From Candidatus Nanoarchaeia archaeon (lineage in GTDB: Archaea > Nanobdellota > Nanobdellia > JAQUSD01), in NCBI GenBank assembly GCA_028715295.1, contig JAQUSD010000003.1:1-52378 (forward strand): DNA of 52,378 bases, written 5' to 3'. Each line of letters opens with the position of its first letter. The stretch's first letter is position 1. Shown here piece after piece: positions 12,257 through 21,507 of this stretch. A model generated the notes under the pieces. It did not search any database and had not been told where the DNA came from. It saw only the letters and a program-made list of their open reading frames with translations. The translations under genes were made by a program, and so were the position numbers.

Positions 12257-14257
12257 ATGAAAAAAGGAGAAATGTCATCTTTAGATTTAATGGCTGTAAT
12301 AAATGAAATTAAAGAACTGCTTACAGGAGCAAAGCTCCAAAAGGTATATCAGTCTGAAAAAGGAGAATTTTATTTTTACTTTTATAAACAAAGAGAATAT
12401 GTTCTGCATATAATATCAGGAGAGATGATGCATTTAACCAATTATAAAAAAGAATTCCCGCAAGTACCCCCACATTTTTGCATGTTCTTAAGAAAATATC
12501 TAAAAAACGCAGTCCTTTTGAAAATAGTCCAGCCAAAATCCCAAAGAATTGCTGAACTTCATTTTAAGACCTCTAATGAAGAACCATACATCTTAATTTT
12601 TGAACTTTTTTCAAAAGGCAACATAGTTTTATGCGATTCTAATCACATAATAATACAACCTTTGTTATTCCAGAAATGGGCAAGCAGAACAATAAAGCCA
12701 AAGGAAAAATATATTTACCCTCCAACCACAACGCCTGATTTAAGAAGTCTTGACGAAGCAAAATTCATAGAACTTATGTCAAAATCAGAGAAAGCAGACG
12801 CAGTGCGTTTTTTAGCAATAGATATTGGGTTGGGAGGTGTTTATTCTGAATTTATTCTTTCAATTTCAGGAATTGACAAGTATGAATTACCAGATAAAAT
12901 TAACAAAAAAACAGCTTCAAAGCTTTACAATGAACTTATGAAACTTGTTGTAAAAATCGCAACAGGAGATACTGAACCAAACATAATACACTCAAATGGG
13001 TTGCCGTTGTTCGCATCACCAGTTTATCTTGGAAAAACAAATTTAACCGAGTTTAATTCATTTAATGATGCAGTAGACGAATTTTTTGCAAAAGATGAAA
13101 AAACAAAAGAAAATCTAGAAAAAACAAAAAAAACCAATTTAAGGGTAAACGAGTATGTTAAGAGATATGAAGAACAGAAAAAAACCGTTGAAGAATACGA
13201 AAAAAAATCAAAAGTGATGAAATCAGAAGCCGAACTTCTCATGAGAAACAAGTTTGTAATCCAGAATATAATAAGCAAGATACTTTCTTCAAGAAAAAGC
13301 GGATATTCATGGGAAGATATATTACTTAGAGTAAAACAGGAAAAAGAAGCGGGTGTTGATGAAGCCCAAATTATTAAACTAATTGAACCCCATCTCGGGA
13401 AAATAATTATTGATGTTGAAGGAAAAGACCATGAATTTGATTTGCACGATGATGTTGGGTATGTAATAAATGAAAAGTATGAAGATTCTAAAAAATTAGA
13501 AGCAAAAGTTGAAGGGGCCAAATCAGCAATGCTTGAAACTAAAACAAAAATAGAACAGATAAAAAAAGAAGAAGAATCTTCTCCAGTAAAAGAATCTTCG
13601 CTTAAAAAAATAGAGAAAAAAACACCAGCAAGATGGTATGAAAATTATAGGTGGTTTATTTCAACAGACAATTATTTGGTAGTTTCAGGAAAAGATGCTT
13701 CACAAAACGAAATTTTAATAAGAAAATATATGGAATTAAATGATAAAGTGTTCCATGCGGACATCCACGGTTCCCCATTTACAATTGTGAAATCAAAAGA
13801 AAAAAAAATACCTGAAAATACCCTAAAAGAAGCAGCAATACAGACTGCCTCTTATTCAAAAGCGTGGAAAGAGGGGCTAGGAAATGTTGATGTTTATTGC
13901 GTTGAGCCCATACAGGTTAAAAAAAGTGGACCTTCAGGGGAGTATCTTGCAAGAGGCTCTTTTATGATACATGGCAAGAAAAATTATTTTAATAATACTG
14001 TGCTTGAAATAGCTGTTGGTGTACTTATAAAAGACAGCAAATACCAGATTATCTCAGGTCCTTATGAAGCTATAAAAAAACATTCAAGATATTTTGTCAG
14101 GCTTTCTCCTGGACAACAAGACGCTAAAATCCTTGGTTCTGAGGTTTTAACTAAATTAAAGCTTAAGGTTTATGGGAATGATGCGGGCGTCTTAGAGATG
14201 ATTAAGCCTTCTGATATAGAGCCGTTTATTCCAGGAGGCTCAAGATTATTATCCTGA
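12257..14257 (+). CDS. rqcH: NFACT-family ribosome quality control protein (RqcH/Rqc2)
   Basis: SSLDL, FCMFLRKYL, ELFSKGNIVL, long coiled coil, WYENYRWF, GKDASQNE, FHADIHGSP, GEYLARGSFMIHG. Confidence 0.93.
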   Translation: MKKGEMSSLDLMAVINEIKELLTGAKLQKVYQSEKGEFYFYFYKQREYVLHIISGEMMHLTNYKKEFPQVPPHFCMFLRKYLKNAVLLKIVQPKSQRIAELHFKTSNEEPYILIFELFSKGNIVLCDSNHIIIQPLLFQKWASRTIKPKEKYIYPPTTTPDLRSLDEAKFIELMSKSEKADAVRFLAIDIGLGGVYSEFILSISGIDKYELPDKINKKTASKLYNELMKLVVKIATGDTEPNIIHSNGLPLFASPVYLGKTNLTEFNSFNDAVDEFFAKDEKTKENLEKTKKTNLRVNEYVKRYEEQKKTVEEYEKKSKVMKSEAELLMRNKFVIQNIISKILSSRKSGYSWEDILLRVKQEKEAGVDEAQIIKLIEPHLGKIIIDVEGKDHEFDLHDDVGYVINEKYEDSKKLEAKVEGAKSAMLETKTKIEQIKKEEESSPVKESSLKKIEKKTPARWYENYRWFISTDNYLVVSGKDASQNEILIRKYMELNDKVFHADIHGSPFTIVKSKEKKIPENTLKEAAIQTASYSKAWKEGLGNVDVYCVEPIQVKKSGPSGEYLARGSFMIHGKKNYFNNTVLEIAVGVLIKDSKYQIISGPYEAIKKHSRYFVRLSPGQQDAKILGSEVLTKLKLKVYGNDAGVLEMIKPSDIEPFIPGGSRLLS

Positions 14258-14355
14258 AAGTCTCAAAGTCTCACTAAAATTTGAGACTTTTGAGACTTTG
14301 ATAAAAAGAAAGTCTCAAAGTCTCACTAAAATTTGAGACTTTTGAGACTTTGATA
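14256..14355. repeat. Two identical 48-bp units (period 52 bp), each an imperfect palindrome of four AGTCTCA/TGAGACT motifs
   Basis: GAAAGTCTCAAAGTCTCACTAAAATTTGAGACTTTTGAGACTTTGATA at 14256-14303 and 14308-14355, separated by AAAA. Confidence 0.98.
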
Positions 14356-14363
14356 CCTTACAA

Positions 14364-14380
14364 CAGAAAGCAATATATAT
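14364..14380 (+). promoter_or_regulatory. Putative BRE/TATA promoter of the wHTH gene
   Basis: CAGAAAG-C-AATATATAT ending 22 nt before ATG 14402. Confidence 0.6.
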
Positions 14381-14401
14381 CCTTGATTCATTTATTTTTT
14401 T

Positions 14402-14887
14402 ATGAGTTATGAAGAAGCTGAAGAACAAAAACAAAAAAAGACTGAGATACACCTACACCAAAGTGATTTAGGAAGCCTTTTCTCGCACATATCAAAACAA
14501 CTAAGTCTTATGGATGAAAAGCAAAAAATGCTAATGGAAGGCCAGATAAATATGATTGAACATCAAATAATGACTATTTCTGCGCTTAAAAAACACGACG
14601 AAAAGATAAATACAAACGTTTCAAATGTCAATAAAAATGTTTTATCTGGGTTTGAAGCCTTGGAAAACCTTTCAAATCTTAAAAACAAAGTTGAAAAAGA
14701 ATTTAAGAGCGAATTGGGTAAGCAAATGCTTGAGATTTTAAATCAAAAAAAAGAAATGACAACCTCTGAAATAATTGAAGCCTTTAAAAAATATGCTTCA
14801 AGAGCAACAATATTCAGAACTTTAAGCGAATTAACAGAAAGAAACCTTGTGGAAAGAGTTCACGGAAAGATTTTAATCAAAAATTGA
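14402..14887 (+). CDS. Coiled-coil + C-terminal winged helix-turn-helix DNA-binding protein
   Basis: Helical heptad-like residues ~25-100; C-terminus MLEILNQKKEMTTSEIIEAFKKYASRATIFRTLSELTERNLVERVHGKILI fits the wHTH pattern. Confidence 0.8.
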   Translation: MSYEEAEEQKQKKTEIHLHQSDLGSLFSHISKQLSLMDEKQKMLMEGQINMIEHQIMTISALKKHDEKINTNVSNVNKNVLSGFEALENLSNLKNKVEKEFKSELGKQMLEILNQKKEMTTSEIIEAFKKYASRATIFRTLSELTERNLVERVHGKILIKN

Positions 14888-15327
14888 ACACACATAATGA
14901 TAAAAATAGACATTTTGAAATTTCTACAAACGAAAAATATAATTAATAGTTCACCCAAAAAATAAATCATATCTTTGAAAAATCATAATTAAAACATTTA
15001 ATTTTAAAAATATCTGCCCCAAAATAAAATCATGAATAATATCCCACTAAAATTAAAATTTATTTATTGGATATATTAAAAATAAAATAAAATATTTTTT
15101 TCATAATTATTCAGAATAAAACCATAATTTAATTGATAATAATGATTTTAAACACACCGCATAAGTTTTTTAAATAAAAATAAATAATCCAGTTAAAAAA
15201 TAATAAACTTTTAAAAGAAGAATATCAAAATATTTTATTATTTGAGTTTGATGGACAAAGAAAAAACATAAAAGTAATAATCACTATTACCTAAGAACGA
15301 CTTTTAAAATTTTTAAATTAAATTTAA
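14888..15327. other. 440-bp extremely AT-rich non-coding tract between convergent genes (candidate DNA-unwinding element)
   Basis: Hand count 73 G+C in 440 nt (~17%); 31-nt pure A/T run at 15071-15101; no ORF in the supplied track. Confidence 0.7.
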
Positions 15328-18015
15328 TTAATTTTTCCAAAATTCCCTCGTCCTCAAATAATTTTTCTCTCTCCTAATTATCTCTTTAATCAATTCGTCT
15401 TCATTTTCATAATCTCTGCATAGAATTCTATAAGCATTTGTCGCCCCAACACCCACACCAGCAAAAATTAAACAGGTTTTTTTGCCGTGTGATAAATATA
15501 AATGTGCTTTTTTTTCTAAATCTTTAGCTATTTTGATATCTTCACCAATAATTTTTTTATTTTTTACGATTTTTTTAACTATTTTTTCAAAATCTTTATA
15601 TTCAGGGAAGAAGGTTATCAATCCCGAATCACATTTTATACAGTTTATCTTATCTTTTGCAGAAATATAAGTATTTTTTCCAAGGTATTGTCCACATTTT
15701 ATACAATAAAACCTAAACACTTTATTTTTTAATCGGTTTTTTACATGTTCTACCACTTCCTTGTAAGCATTTTCAGGGTTTACAAATTCATTTAAATGGA
15801 ATTTTAATGAAAATTCACCAAATGGAGAGACATTACCATCATTTCTTTCAACCTTTATCAGCTTTTTCCTAATTTTTTCAAGTATTTTCTCAGAATTTTC
15901 AATATCCATATGCTTTTTTATTTCTTCATTGAAGCTTTCTTCATAAACTATGCTGTCTTTATAAATTTCTATCAGCTTTTTCACAATCCTCTTATTGATT
16001 TCAGCATTTTTTTTCAATACCCCGCAACGTTTTGCAACATTTACAAAAGTCCAGTTAAAATTTGAATTGTTTTTTAGAGACAGCTTCAAAATCTCTTTAA
16101 GCCACCCTTCACCTATGTTTAAAAGTGAGGCATTAATAGCATCAAAATTTCTGTCAGGGAGTCTGATTACAGCGCCGTAAGCATCAGATTTCAAAGCGAT
16201 AGAAATTCCGTATTTTGATGATAGAAGTGCTGTAAGAGCTGTATAGAGCGTTTTGTTGATTTTAGTTCCAAAAGATGAATGGACTACTAAATATTCCCCA
16301 TTTATCTCTAAAAAAATTCTATCAACGGAGTGAAGGAAATATTTTTTTTGTCTATCAATGAACTCGTCTTTAATTTTGCTTCTTAATTCATCTGCTGTTT
16401 TTGCTATCAAATATGGAACAGGAATATTTTCTCCATCCCACACAGGAATATTATTGCTTGTTGCACCAATTCTTATTACAAATATCCTATCTCCATCAAG
16501 CTTTGTGACTCTCCAAGGCTCCCCTCTACATACAAACTGCTTTCCAAGTTCAATATTCTCTGCTACAAACTCTTCGTCTAAAACACCTATTTTTGAGTTA
16601 TTCTGCTCATTTATAACAAAATATGTTTTTATTGAGGGAATCATGCTTAAATTGTCATAATAATACAACATGCCTTTTCTTGTTTTGCCAATAACATCCC
16701 CAAATTCTCCAATTAGATTAACCTGTTTCATGAAATCAAGAATTTTCCTAAATTCTTCTTTAGACAAATTCCTATAAACATGAGATTTTTTTACTGAGTT
16801 ATAAACAAACTCTATTTTTGGGTCTCTGAAATCCATACAATATCCTACAATCCCATGGATAAGCACATCATACGGCTTTTCAATAATCTCAAGAGTCTCA
16901 AGATTTTTGAGATTTTGGACAATTGAAACAGCTTCAAGGTAATCATGCGTATTGGTTGTTAATAAAATCCCTTTTGAAACCCTGTCTTTTGAATGTCCTG
17001 AACGTCCAACCCTTTGAATCAAACGCGTAACTTCTCTTGGTGAAGTAAACTGGACAACAGTTTCTATATCTCCCACATCAATACCTAATTCCATAGAAGA
17101 AGTGCAGACTATTGCTTTAATTTCTCCTTTTCTAAACCCGTCTTCTGTTGAAAGCCTACTCTCTTTACTCAGGCTTGAATGATGAACTTCTACTTTTTCA
17201 TTTATCCTTTTGAGTTTTGAACCTAAAAGCTCAGCAGTCTGCCTTGTATTTACAAATACAAGGGTTGATTTTGAGCAGTTTATTATTTCATTTATCTTTC
17301 TAACAGCCCACGCAACTTCTTTACCAACCCCTTGTTTTTCAGCATATTCTAAATCCTCTCCTTCAGGATTTGCTTTAAGAACTTCAATGTCATACTTCTT
17401 GTCAGCATCAAGTCTTACAGTCTCACAGTTTTGAGACAAATAATCCCTTACACCGGAAATATTGCTCACAGTTGCTGAAAGCCCTATTTTCTGGAAGTTT
17501 GGAGATAAAAGTCTCAATCTTTCCAATCCAATGCTTAATTGGGCCCCTCTTTTATCCCCAGCCAATTCGTGAATTTCATCTATAATAACATACTTCAGCT
17601 TTTTCAGATGTTCTCTAAGCCGTTTTCCAATCAATAATGCCTGTACAGTTTCAGGAGTTGTAATCATTATTGAGGGAGGATTTTTACTTTGTTTAACTCT
17701 CTCGCTTTGTTTTGTATCCCCATGCCTGACATCAATTTTAATACCCAATTTTACTCCCCATTGAACAATCCTGTCAAATATGTCTCTGTTGAGAGCTTTA
17801 AGTGGAGTAATATAAAGGCATTTTATACCTTCTTCCTTATCATTTATTAAGTCATTAAACACCCCAATCATACTGGCTTGTGTTTTTCCATAACCTGTCG
17901 GAGCAGTGATAAGAACATCCTTCCCTTCATGGACATGTTTAAATGAGACTTTCTGGTACTCAAATAAGTCCCCATATTCTTCTCCAATTATTTCTGTGAT
18001 TTTAGGATGTAACAT
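15328..18015 (-). CDS. lhr: Lhr-core ATP-dependent DEAH/DEIH helicase
   Basis: APTGYGKT, DEIH, GLSAT, HHSSLS, CTSSMELGID, QRVGRSGH; C-terminal CxxC...CxxC. Confidence 0.95.
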   Translation of the reverse strand: MLHPKITEIIGEEYGDLFEYQKVSFKHVHEGKDVLITAPTGYGKTQASMIGVFNDLINDKEEGIKCLYITPLKALNRDIFDRIVQWGVKLGIKIDVRHGDTKQSERVKQSKNPPSIMITTPETVQALLIGKRLREHLKKLKYVIIDEIHELAGDKRGAQLSIGLERLRLLSPNFQKIGLSATVSNISGVRDYLSQNCETVRLDADKKYDIEVLKANPEGEDLEYAEKQGVGKEVAWAVRKINEIINCSKSTLVFVNTRQTAELLGSKLKRINEKVEVHHSSLSKESRLSTEDGFRKGEIKAIVCTSSMELGIDVGDIETVVQFTSPREVTRLIQRVGRSGHSKDRVSKGILLTTNTHDYLEAVSIVQNLKNLETLEIIEKPYDVLIHGIVGYCMDFRDPKIEFVYNSVKKSHVYRNLSKEEFRKILDFMKQVNLIGEFGDVIGKTRKGMLYYYDNLSMIPSIKTYFVINEQNNSKIGVLDEEFVAENIELGKQFVCRGEPWRVTKLDGDRIFVIRIGATSNNIPVWDGENIPVPYLIAKTADELRSKIKDEFIDRQKKYFLHSVDRIFLEINGEYLVVHSSFGTKINKTLYTALTALLSSKYGISIALKSDAYGAVIRLPDRNFDAINASLLNIGEGWLKEILKLSLKNNSNFNWTFVNVAKRCGVLKKNAEINKRIVKKLIEIYKDSIVYEESFNEEIKKHMDIENSEKILEKIRKKLIKVERNDGNVSPFGEFSLKFHLNEFVNPENAYKEVVEHVKNRLKNKVFRFYCIKCGQYLGKNTYISAKDKINCIKCDSGLITFFPEYKDFEKIVKKIVKNKKIIGEDIKIAKDLEKKAHLYLSHGKKTCLIFAGVGVGATNAYRILCRDYENEDELIKEIIRREKNYLRTREFWKN

Positions 18016-18113
18016 AAGTTGTTTTAGATATATGCCTTTATTTATAAAGGTTATCCAAAATAAAAACCTCCAAAAACCTAATCTTTTTATTCAGCCAAGC
18101 TGAATAATATGTT

Positions 18114-19394
18114 ATGGAATATGATGAGGTTTTTAAAAGAGTTCTGAAAGAGATTAATCCAAAACAATCAGAGATAAAAAAAGCAAACCAGGTTAGCATA
18201 GAACTTAAAAAAATTCTTGAAAAATCCGCAAAAGAACTTAAGATTGATTGTGAGATTTTTCTTGGCGGTTCAATTGCAAAGGGAACCTGGCTTTCAGGAA
18301 AGCACGATATCGACTTTTTCATACGCCTTAACTCAAAATACAATGATTTATCACAATACGCAGGTATGGTGATTTCCAATGCATTATCAACCAAAAATTC
18401 AAAATTCATTATTTCAAAAGTCCATGGCTCAAGAGATTATTATAAGATGGATTACAGGGGTTTTGAAGTTGAATTTGTTCCTGTACTCAAAATCTCAAAA
18501 GTCTCAGACTTTTTAAATATAACAGACGCCTCGCCCTTCCATGTTAAATATGTTCAGAAAGAACTAAAAAAGAACCCTAAACTAAAAGAAGAAATACTTC
18601 TGCTCAAGCAGTTTTCAAAAGCAAACGGCTTTTATGGGGCTGAAACATGGATTTCCGGTTTTTCAGGTTATGTTACAGAACTTTTGATACTCCATTACGG
18701 TTCTTTTTTTAATCTTCTTAAATCAGCATTAGGATGGAAGGGAAAGATTTACATTGATACAAAGAAGTATTACAAAAGTCTTGGAGAAGCTATTAAGAAG
18801 CTGGACAAGTCAAAAACACGAGGGCCTTTAGTTTTAATTGATCCCGTACAAAAAGAAAGAAATGCAGGAGCGAGCATAAATCAAAAAGCACTTGATAAAT
18901 TCATAAACTCAGCTGAAAAATTCCTTGAAAAACCTTTGGAAAACATGTTCAAAAAGGAAAAGATAACAATAAAAGACTTAGAAAAAACAGCAGAAAGCAA
19001 TAACCATGAGCTGATATATTTAGTTTATAAAATTAAAAGCAAAGCAAAAAAAGATGTTTTCTTTGCAAAAATGCAGAGAAATTTAAGAAAATTCAGCGCA
19101 TTTATTGAAAAAGAGAATGTAAAAGTGTATAACAAAGGAATTCTGCCGTCTGAAACTAACCTTTATTTGTGGCTTGAAACAGAAAAAATAACCTCTCTTA
19201 AACCTTATGTTCAGATTGGGCCTTCAGAAACCCGCAAAGATGCGGTCAAAAACTTTAATTTAAAATGGAAAAACCATCCAAGAACAATCAAGGGACCGTA
19301 TATTAAAGACGGAAAAGTCTGCTTTGATGTAAAACCAAGATATAGAATCTTAGACACCTTAATAAAAGAAGCAAAAAAATTCTCTAATTTATAA
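18114..19394 (+). CDS. cca: CCA-adding enzyme, archaeal class I
   Basis: GSIAKGTWLSGKHDIDFF, SPFH, YGAE, GFSGYVTELL, LIDPVQKERNA. Confidence 0.96.
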   Translation: MEYDEVFKRVLKEINPKQSEIKKANQVSIELKKILEKSAKELKIDCEIFLGGSIAKGTWLSGKHDIDFFIRLNSKYNDLSQYAGMVISNALSTKNSKFIISKVHGSRDYYKMDYRGFEVEFVPVLKISKVSDFLNITDASPFHVKYVQKELKKNPKLKEEILLLKQFSKANGFYGAETWISGFSGYVTELLILHYGSFFNLLKSALGWKGKIYIDTKKYYKSLGEAIKKLDKSKTRGPLVLIDPVQKERNAGASINQKALDKFINSAEKFLEKPLENMFKKEKITIKDLEKTAESNNHELIYLVYKIKSKAKKDVFFAKMQRNLRKFSAFIEKENVKVYNKGILPSETNLYLWLETEKITSLKPYVQIGPSETRKDAVKNFNLKWKNHPRTIKGPYIKDGKVCFDVKPRYRILDTLIKEAKKFSNL

Positions 19395-20078
19395 TTAAAG
19401 CATTTTAGTTAAGTCAAGAAGCAGAACCTCTTTAATATCTACGTGCTTCATAAACTTTTCAGTTGATTCTCCCGCCCCCCCAACAAGTTCATTGAATGCT
19501 GGGACAAGAATAATCTTCTTCTTTACACCATGAAACTCGCACTCACCAATAAACCACGCTTTATTTGGGGTTATTGATTCAACCCGGTCCCTTAACTTGT
19601 ATTCCGGGTGCACATGTCCAGCAATTATAATCTTCACTTTACTCATCATTTCCTTGCTTGGGAATGCATGTCCATGTATAAATCCAAAGCCACCCAGAGC
19701 CTGCTCCTTGATTATTTTAACTTTGACTTTTTCTTTCCTTGCTAAGTCTTCAAGCCCGGCATCATGGTTGCCTCTTACAATAATTATTTCTTTGAAAACG
19801 CTTGAAAGCTTTTCAATGAAAAAGGGGATTTCATTCTGCTCCTGCCAGCTTATCAAGGGTATGCTGTGTTTAAAGTCTCCAAGTATCATGAGACTTTGAG
19901 ACTTTGTTCTTTTACCTATTTTAATGAGTTTTTCAAGCATTTTAGAGGTTTGAGACACAACCGTTATGCCTCTACGTCTTAATTCTTTCTCAACACCAAT
20001 ATGCATGTCAGCAACAATAAGGGTTTTTCCTATACAAAAGGAAGCAGTATTTTTGTTAAATCTTACCTTCATAATCAT
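19395..20078 (-). CDS. Metallophosphoesterase, COG1407-like (Lhr-associated MPE type)
   Basis: ADMHIG, LGDFKH, GNHD, HGH, GHVHP, PAFN. Confidence 0.9.
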   Translation of the reverse strand: MIMKVRFNKNTASFCIGKTLIVADMHIGVEKELRRRGITVVSQTSKMLEKLIKIGKRTKSQSLMILGDFKHSIPLISWQEQNEIPFFIEKLSSVFKEIIIVRGNHDAGLEDLARKEKVKVKIIKEQALGGFGFIHGHAFPSKEMMSKVKIIIAGHVHPEYKLRDRVESITPNKAWFIGECEFHGVKKKIILVPAFNELVGGAGESTEKFMKHVDIKEVLLLDLTKML

Positions 20079-20377: not shown

Positions 20378-20431
20378 ATCTTTTTCTAACCAAGCAATAT
20401 CTATTAAATCTTTTGTTATTATTTATTTTTT

Positions 20432-20935
20432 ATGGATTTAGAGCTGATGTGCACTTCAGGTAAATGTGGAATTTGCTGTTTTTATTATTACAAAAACAAA
20501 GGATACCATATTGCTTTTGAAAAAACAGCAAATACAGACAAAAAATTAAGTGAATTTATAGAAAAAAACAAAGACAAGATAATGGAAAACATTTCAGAAA
20601 TTGGGACCAAATCTTATTTTACAGCAATAAGAAAAGACGCTTATATTCTAACAAAACACGGGGAACGCTTTTATCCATGCTCTTTTTTAGACATAACTAG
20701 AAATGAAAACACAAAAACAATTGAAACCATCCTGTGTTCAATACATGAAAGTGATTACCGTCCGGATGTATGCAAAAACAAAGAAACTTCTAAAAACAGC
20801 CAAATTGAACCTTGCTGGGCTTTATTTTTCAAGGAGATTGCATGTATTGTTGTGAGTAAAAAACTATACAAATTAAATGACAATTTAATGGATTTATGCA
20901 GGTACTACGCGCATCTTTATGAAACATTTAAATAA
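20432..20935 (+). CDS. YkgJ-like CxxCxxCC Zn/Fe-chelating protein
   Basis: CTSGKCGICC ... PCSFL ... CSIH ... RPDVC. Confidence 0.72.
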   Translation: MDLELMCTSGKCGICCFYYYKNKGYHIAFEKTANTDKKLSEFIEKNKDKIMENISEIGTKSYFTAIRKDAYILTKHGERFYPCSFLDITRNENTKTIETILCSIHESDYRPDVCKNKETSKNSQIEPCWALFFKEIACIVVSKKLYKLNDNLMDLCRYYAHLYETFK

Positions 20936-20958
20936 ATCAGTATTATACCTTGTAATTT

Positions 20959-21507
20959 ATGACAGAAGAACAGCAGTGTCCATTTTGTGCAATAGCGTCG
21001 GGAAATATTCCCTCAAAAGTCCTTTACGAAGATGATGCTGTTGTGGCTTTTCTTGATATAAATCCCGCAAATGCAGGACACACAATTATTATCCCAAAGA
21101 AGCACTACGCTTTTCTTTATCAGGTTCCAACTGAAGAAATGGTTAAATTATTTGCAGTAGCAAAAGCTCTTTCAGTTGCTGTTGTTCAGGCGGGCGGTGC
21201 ACAGGGCATGAATATGATTTATTCAATGGGCCCTGCAGCAGGACAGAGGGCCCCCCACATGATGATTCATTTAATTCCTAGGTTTGAAAACGATAAAGTG
21301 GTTATTTCATGGGATTCTGCACCAGCAAGCGAGGAAAACCTGGTAAACATGGCTGATAAAATAAAGTCAACTTTAAGAAGCGGGGGAGTATCAACCCCAG
21401 AAACAATTGAAGCACCAAAACCAGAGCCCAAGCCTTCTGAACCTGAAAAACAAGATGAAGAAGAAAAGCCAAAAATCACATGGGTCCCTCCAAAAAGAGT
21501 CCCTTAA
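20959..21507 (+). CDS. HIT-family protein with degenerate triad and Pro/Glu-rich tail
   Basis: CPFCAI, FLDINP, GHTIIIPKKH, GQRAPHMMIHLIPR. Confidence 0.9.
   Translation: MTEEQQCPFCAIASGNIPSKVLYEDDAVVAFLDINPANAGHTIIIPKKHYAFLYQVPTEEMVKLFAVAKALSVAVVQAGGAQGMNMIYSMGPAAGQRAPHMMIHLIPRFENDKVVISWDSAPASEENLVNMADKIKSTLRSGGVSTPETIEAPKPEPKPSEPEKQDEEEKPKITWVPPKRVP

Follow-up and report, generated by a model that had tools for sequence, protein, structure and literature searches.

What occupies 440 nucleotides of extremely AT-rich DNA between two genes that both end there? The question arises at positions 14888-15327 of contig C2, which in its full length of 52,378 nucleotides is the stretch of DNA analysed here (the window). 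The contig is part of a 777-kb assembly of 42 contigs that is 94% complete and has a G+C content of 33.5%. Genes for an archaeal CCA-adding enzyme, NFACT, Lhr and Orc1/Cdc6 suggest that the host is a DPANN-type archaeon with a small genome. The genome collection holds no close relatives of this host, and the nearest genomes in it share only its class. The original prediction, drawn from the letters of the sequence, proposed that the gap is an unwinding element (DUE), with a decayed AT-rich gene or a non-coding RNA as alternatives. Here, we describe why the gap is very probably a unitary pseudogene, the nearly full-length but eroded remains of a UPF0047/YjbQ gene of ~135 codons that lay on the + strand at roughly 14893-15294.

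The AT-rich gap and its flanking genes

The gap is bounded by two converging stop codons. Its left edge is the TGA stop of a + strand gene (14402-14887) that encodes a 161-aa wHTH protein with a C-terminal DeoR-like HTH, and its right edge is the stop of a - strand gene (15328-18015) for an Lhr-type helicase of 895 aa, whose best homologues are 45-47% identical. The wHTH protein is an orphan: it is matched only by generic HTH models (DeoR-like, 31.7 bits), and a search of 5.8 billion proteins returned zero homologues. Upstream of its gene, just 5' of the leaderless-looking wHTH promoter, lies a palindromic GAGAC-type repeat array (14256-14355). It consists of one palindromic unit in two perfect copies and contains eight TGAGACT/AGTCTCA words. 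The array is preceded by a + strand gene of the NFACT family (12257-14257), the RqcH-like family of ribosome quality control. Across the window the TGAGACT/AGTCTCA word occurs 16 times, compared with 4.8 expected, and 0 times in the AT-rich gap. Seven more exact copies are clustered in lhr, cca and a phosphoesterase gene (window 16894-19903).

The size and composition first reported for the gap, 440 bp at ~17% G+C between convergent genes, are confirmed: it measures 440 nt from stop to stop and has 16.6% G+C (A 220, T 147, C 46, G 27). The 31-nt pure A/T run at 15071-15101 is present as described, and a second such run, of 35 nt, is found at 15302-15336. The gap was also said to be the largest non-coding stretch of the window, and it is indeed the longest ORF-free interval there. 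At the scale of the genome, C2:15035-15334 is the 300-nt window with the lowest G+C content in the whole 777-kb assembly (14.7%), a near-tie on contig C32 being an artefact of 100 N. Of the ~144 convergent junctions in the genome, 70 abut or overlap and 74 leave a gap with a median length of 69 nt; none leaves a longer gap than this one.

Duplex stability was calculated from nearest-neighbour energies in 100-bp windows. The least stable 100 bp of the gap stand at 97.1 kcal/mol, third in the genome, for which the mean is 123. On this scale, the one that matters for a DUE, the gap is not unique: about ten genome sites fall within 2 kcal/mol of this value, including the DUE of oriC (97.8), and low duplex stability does not discriminate between the hypotheses considered here. 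Among the long spacers of the assembly, the one at C23:3374-3763 comes second in AT content; it lies between divergent genes and is 390 nt long, with 22.6% G+C and a 300-nt minimum of 17.3%.

Homology of the gap to UPF0047/YjbQ

We compared the translations of 24 small genes from the NFACT-Lhr interval of relatives with window positions 14258-15400. Significant matches were obtained with only three of the 24 queries, all of them UPF0047 proteins (PF01894) of 132-140 aa. In these tblastn comparisons, residues 100-134 of the three proteins match the + strand at 15184-15288 with composition-adjusted E-values of 9e-7 to 2e-5, and the gap translates there as IIQLKNNKLLKEEYQNILLFEFDGQRKNIKVIITI, aligned to a 35-residue UPF0047 segment of the relatives. 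Residues 60-91 match the + strand in a different frame at 15063-15161, a stretch interrupted by a TAA; the gap translates there as ...NHNLIDNNDFKHTA and the relatives have ...RHDKIDDNAASHIA.

The other genes of the NFACT-Lhr interval that were tried as the relic's parent gave no match in the gap. They included a TyrRS/TrpRS-type synthetase, a prenyltransferase, a GAPDH-like gene, and genes for a zinc-ribbon protein and a 57-aa basic protein.

A six-frame search of the whole 777-kb assembly with Pfam PF01894 yielded a single candidate, at C2:15166-15288 on the + strand (18.4 bits, E 1.1e-3), and its score lies under the Pfam gathering threshold of 27, as expected for a wrecked gene. We also used a lineage profile of 136 positions, made from 29 UPF0047 proteins of class relatives. 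On this profile the gap reaches 36.2 bits (E 4e-9 for 19,032 six-frame genome windows). No other site in the genome exceeds 9.4 bits, and 2000 dinucleotide-preserving shuffles of the gap yield 8.9 bits at most. Minus-strand frames of the gap obtain negative scores. Neither PF01894 nor the lineage profile found an intact UPF0047 gene in the 42 contigs of this 94% complete assembly.

The lineage profile aligns to the gap in three colinear + strand pieces that run from position 5 to position 134 of 136. The first (S1, 14905-15021) corresponds to the N-terminal third of the family (profile 5-44) and contains three in-frame stops; at 4.0 bits the match is weak, so its placement rests mainly on colinearity and the exact 5' boundary of the relic is uncertain. 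The second (S2, 15036-15173; profile 50-94; 8.4 bits) represents the middle third in a frame that differs from those of S1 and S3. It carries five in-frame stops and keeps HNLIDNN..KH, compared with HDKIDDNAAAH in the family consensus. The C-terminal third gives the strongest match (S3, 15163-15291; profile 92-134; 31.3 bits), with two in-frame stops followed by 36 open codons, and it keeps YQNILLFEFDGQRKNIKVIITI, for which the consensus is TWQEILFLELDGPREERKVIVKI. Right after profile position 134 the alignment ends on a TAA (15292-15294), presumably the original stop of the dead gene, and a 33-nt spacer separates this codon from the Lhr stop.

Taken together, S1, S2 and S3 represent 130 of the 136 profile positions in 387 nt, so that the relic fills ~91% of the gap and is near its original length. 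Its reading frame is broken by 10 stops and at least two frameshifts, and no start-to-stop ORF of at least 20 aa is present over S2 and S3. The three pieces total ~44 bits, compared with 98-210 bits for intact relatives.

Gene order in class relatives

The flanking genes were searched in 60 class relatives. NFACT (+) and Lhr (-) form an old convergent pair that is conserved across the class; the 0.3-6 kb that separate the two genes hold variable cargo. Class relatives supplied 29 UPF0047 loci, and at 12-13 of these, spanning at least 8 families, an intact UPF0047 gene (~135 aa) follows NFACT directly on the same strand. The distance from the NFACT end to the UPF0047 start in those loci is between -59 and +101 nt, often as a 4-nt stop/start overlap, which makes NFACT the immediate upstream partner of UPF0047. 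Lhr converges on intact UPF0047 or on other cargo in relatives, just as it converges on the relic here, and in G050, G011 and G018 it does so 0.25-0.8 kb beyond UPF0047. The gene order NFACT, dead UPF0047 and converging lhr is the same as in these relatives.

The tract is thus colinear with syntenic intact UPF0047 genes, an alignment that the original prediction had itself named as speaking against a DUE. Since relatives keep an intact gene at the same spot, the gap is a case of ordinary gene decay and not a replication origin. It is the decayed AT-rich gene, earlier listed as an alternative, that is borne out by UPF0047 homology, colinearity, synteny, and stops and frameshifts, all of which are observed, as is the neutral composition of the relic. 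UPF0047 was not found in 32 of the 60 sampled relatives, which indicates that the gene is often lost.

An AT-rich gap like this one is absent from the lhr 3' end and the NFACT-Lhr interval of the ~20 loci examined in relatives. ORF-free gaps there reach at most 130 nt within the interval and at most 271 nt after lhr, the latter with an ordinary G+C content (0.32). In the host, ~635 nt (14258-14892), containing the array and the wHTH gene, separate NFACT from the relic. Because relatives have only -59 to +101 nt between NFACT and UPF0047, we infer that the array and wHTH segment is a lineage-specific insertion that split the pair.

Base composition and a proposed course of decay

The G+C content of the gap (16.6%) is close to that of fourfold-degenerate sites in long genes (18.7%; z -1.1) and far below that of ordinary intergenic DNA (26.8%; z -4.8). 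The composition of the gap has relaxed to the neutral expectation. The direction of change can be read by simple arithmetic on the mean coding-strand composition of the genome (A.372, C.144, G.197, T.286). Turning the lost G into A and the lost C into T predicts A.508 and T.325, and the gap has.500 and.334. The extreme AT content and the A-richness of the + strand thus follow from a purine-rich coding strand whose G mostly became A, and the same G-to-A and C-to-T arithmetic accounts for the AAATAAAA tracts as decayed coding sequence rich in Lys, Asn and Glu.

In relatives, the G+C content of intact UPF0047 genes differs from that of the host by no more than ~0.06, and mostly by no more than 0.04; their GC1 clearly exceeds their GC2. 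The relic retains no more than a faint residue of GC1 above GC2 and GC3, and the 3-nt codon periodicity of the gap is not significant.

From these observations we propose the following history. The ancestral UPF0047 gene would have stood directly 3' of NFACT, often overlapping its stop, and would have faced the 3' end of lhr. Insertion of the array and the orphan wHTH gene may have cut UPF0047 off from its upstream partner, and this is a possible cause of its inactivation. The function of UPF0047 would then have been lost in this lineage and the DNA never deleted, while AT-biased mutation would have brought the sequence to a neutral base composition and introduced the stops and frameshifts. 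The insertion would have preceded the decay on this account, or it may have come later. The tract most likely has no sequence-specific function today, and its present role is at most that of a spacer or terminator zone for two converging genes. Against the pseudogene, one has to count that decayed DNA has persisted over nearly its full length, ~400 nt, in a streamlined genome.

Alternative explanations of the gap

Under the DUE proposal, DNA would be unwound at the tract to start replication, either at a second origin of the chromosome or at that of an integrated iteron-type replicon, with initiator sites in the array and the wHTH protein as the initiator. The most AT-rich 300 nt of the assembly are found here, their least stable 100 bp match the oriC DUE, and an orphan wHTH gene and a repeat array adjoin them. 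Initiators of the wHTH class beside AT-rich tracts do exist, as in Sulfolobus WhiP and the RepA/RepE class of iteron plasmids. We nevertheless consider this proposal highly improbable. A decayed ancestral chromosomal gene, located outside the inserted cassette, fully explains the AT-richness. Genes converge on the tract and do not diverge from it. The array is 530 nt away, beyond the wHTH gene, and its palindromic, promoter-proximal arrangement is operator-like, and the ~20 loci of relatives mentioned above have nothing comparable at the same junctions.

The gap also lacks the features that an origin might be expected to display. There is no ORB or mini-ORB in it, and no ORB anywhere on contig C2; the array motif is absent from the gap even when one mismatch is allowed. 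Direct and inverted repeats are not in excess over dinucleotide shuffles (lowest P = 0.037, for 8-mer inverted repeats in six tests), and repeat pairs are at the level expected of low-complexity AT-rich DNA. Helical phasing of A-tracts (10-11 bp) is not significant in the gap, and reading it by eye for a dif-like recombinase site revealed no convincing palindrome. Since the 42 contigs are unordered, a cumulative skew of the whole genome carries no meaning; skew along contig C2 tracks gene orientation, with no global extremum at 15 kb. No Orc1/Cdc6-class initiator gene is found beside the gap, the homologues being located on C25 and C6.

Archaeal oriC regions have an AT-rich DUE flanked by ORB and mini-ORB elements, next to orc1/cdc6 (PMC5333045, PMC1904270). 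The gap shares with them only its AT-richness and low duplex stability, and differs in having no ORBs, no neighbour of the Orc1/Cdc6 class and convergent genes. By contrast, the sequence of C25:19880-20230 identifies it as a textbook archaeal oriC. Four ORB boxes with the sequence CCTTGATTTCCARTGGAA lie in one orientation at C25:19889-20033, and a mini-ORB in the other orientation, with a G-rich string after it, is found at C25:20191-20220. Boxes and inverted mini-ORB flank a 157-nt DUE of 15.3% G+C within the 455-nt region upstream of orc1/cdc6 (C25:20332-21537; TIGR02928 match at 20383-21474, 432.9 bits). The cluster at C25:19889-20202 is the only ORB/mini-ORB cluster in the genome. This canonical origin suffices for a 0.78-Mb genome, and the DUE first proposed for the gap is not supported, the tract being eroded UPF0047 and the canonical oriC residing on another contig. 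A second Orc1/Cdc6-like gene is present on C6 (181 bits, just below the TIGR02928 cut-off), and the 564-nt gap upstream of it (C6:41755-42318) has an ordinary G+C content of 31.9% and contains no ORB-like repeats.

A pseudogene and an origin could in principle be combined: the dead UPF0047 gene, together with the array and wHTH cassette, might have been co-opted into a non-canonical second origin or a partition locus, in which it would be the part that unwinds. We give this, too, a very slim chance.

The probability that a non-coding RNA or small protein is encoded in the tract is practically negligible. Its length would suit an sRNA, and ORFs of 36 aa (- strand, 14860-14970) and 22 aa (+ strand, 14897-14965) can be read in it. 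Rfam, however, gives no match at gathering thresholds or at E<=1, and no tRNA was found. Predicted folds have z-scores of +0.64 (+ strand) and +1.51 (- strand), no better than shuffles, and 16.6% G+C is far under what a structured RNA needs. The non-coding RNA offered as an alternative in the original prediction thus finds no support, either from Rfam or from folding. The small ORFs are of the size expected by chance at the composition of the gap, with an estimated ~0.1 stops per codon, and the hydrophobic 36-aa frame just reads the strand opposite A-rich DNA.

Alternatively, the tract may act in transcription termination, as a 3'-UTR or as a topological buffer, and its length may be maintained because it insulates the converging wHTH and lhr transcripts. 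Archaeal transcription terminates at oligo-T, and suitable runs are present on both strands: on the T-rich - strand, oligo-T runs occur no more than ~60 nt from the lhr stop, and on the + strand the wHTH stop is followed by T7 (15095-15101) and T6 (15167-15172). Some termination surely takes place in the tract. As an explanation of its size, though, we hold this very unlikely. The other 143 convergent junctions of the genome manage with a median gap of 69 nt or with none, and the same junctions in relatives measure 0-130 nt. The relic accounts for both length and content, which leaves termination as a by-product role.

Comparison with known systems

Degraded gene remnants are described as forming long intergenic regions in Rickettsia prowazekii and Buchnera, according to the summary in PMC3899985, which cites Andersson & Andersson (2001) and Ogata et al. 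(2001). The UPF0047 relic resembles these remnants in being a long spacer in a small genome of the host-dependent type, with the ancestral gene intact at the same position in relatives, and in its stops, frameshifts and drift toward the mutational base composition. It differs from them in that its host is a DPANN-type archaeon and not a bacterium, and in that it is near its full original length despite complete compositional equilibration. In the absence of a close relative, the relic was recognised by a family profile and by deep synteny, with flanking proteins at ~40% identity, and not by DNA alignment.

Members of the UPF0047/YjbQ family complement thiE mutants and show a weak thiamin-phosphate-synthase activity, according to Morett et al. 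(2008), as reported in PMC3020362. The relic shows traces of the H-x-x-I-D-x-N...H and W/YQ-x-I-L-x-x-E-x-DG-x-R blocks of the family. Unlike a functional member, it has an unrecognisable HxTxA-type block near profile positions 45-49, as well as stops and frameshifts.

Significance of the relic

Identifying the most AT-rich stretch of this genome as an old pseudogene, and not an origin, a centromere or an RNA gene, removes a false lead. The tract provides no independent support for a model of a non-canonical origin or centromere around the neighbouring array and wHTH gene, and the true oriC can be placed confidently on contig C25. The phenomenon is well known, and the tract adds a new and clear case of ongoing gene erosion from a deep-branching lineage, in a DPANN-type archaeon. 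The relic also reads out the mutational equilibrium of the lineage, at ~17% G+C and with G-to-A changes dominant on the former coding strand.

Conservation of the NFACT-UPF0047 pair across the class suggests that UPF0047, a family still poorly understood, is functionally linked to NFACT, and the pairing may hint at the cellular role of UPF0047. The pair is present in at least 12 genomes of the class and is seen at loci L046, L047, L055, L057, L066-L070, L073 and L074. A conserved basic protein of ~57 aa, which has no Pfam match, also recurs in the NFACT-Lhr interval of several relatives. Its pattern reads …KSKAKA.AK…RFPDKAV.EL…AAKRAKANKRKTI..EDF, and its genes are found at L041:2861-3034(-), L042:1656-1829(-), L043:5896-6069(-), L016:1235-1414(-) and L040:2224-2391(+).
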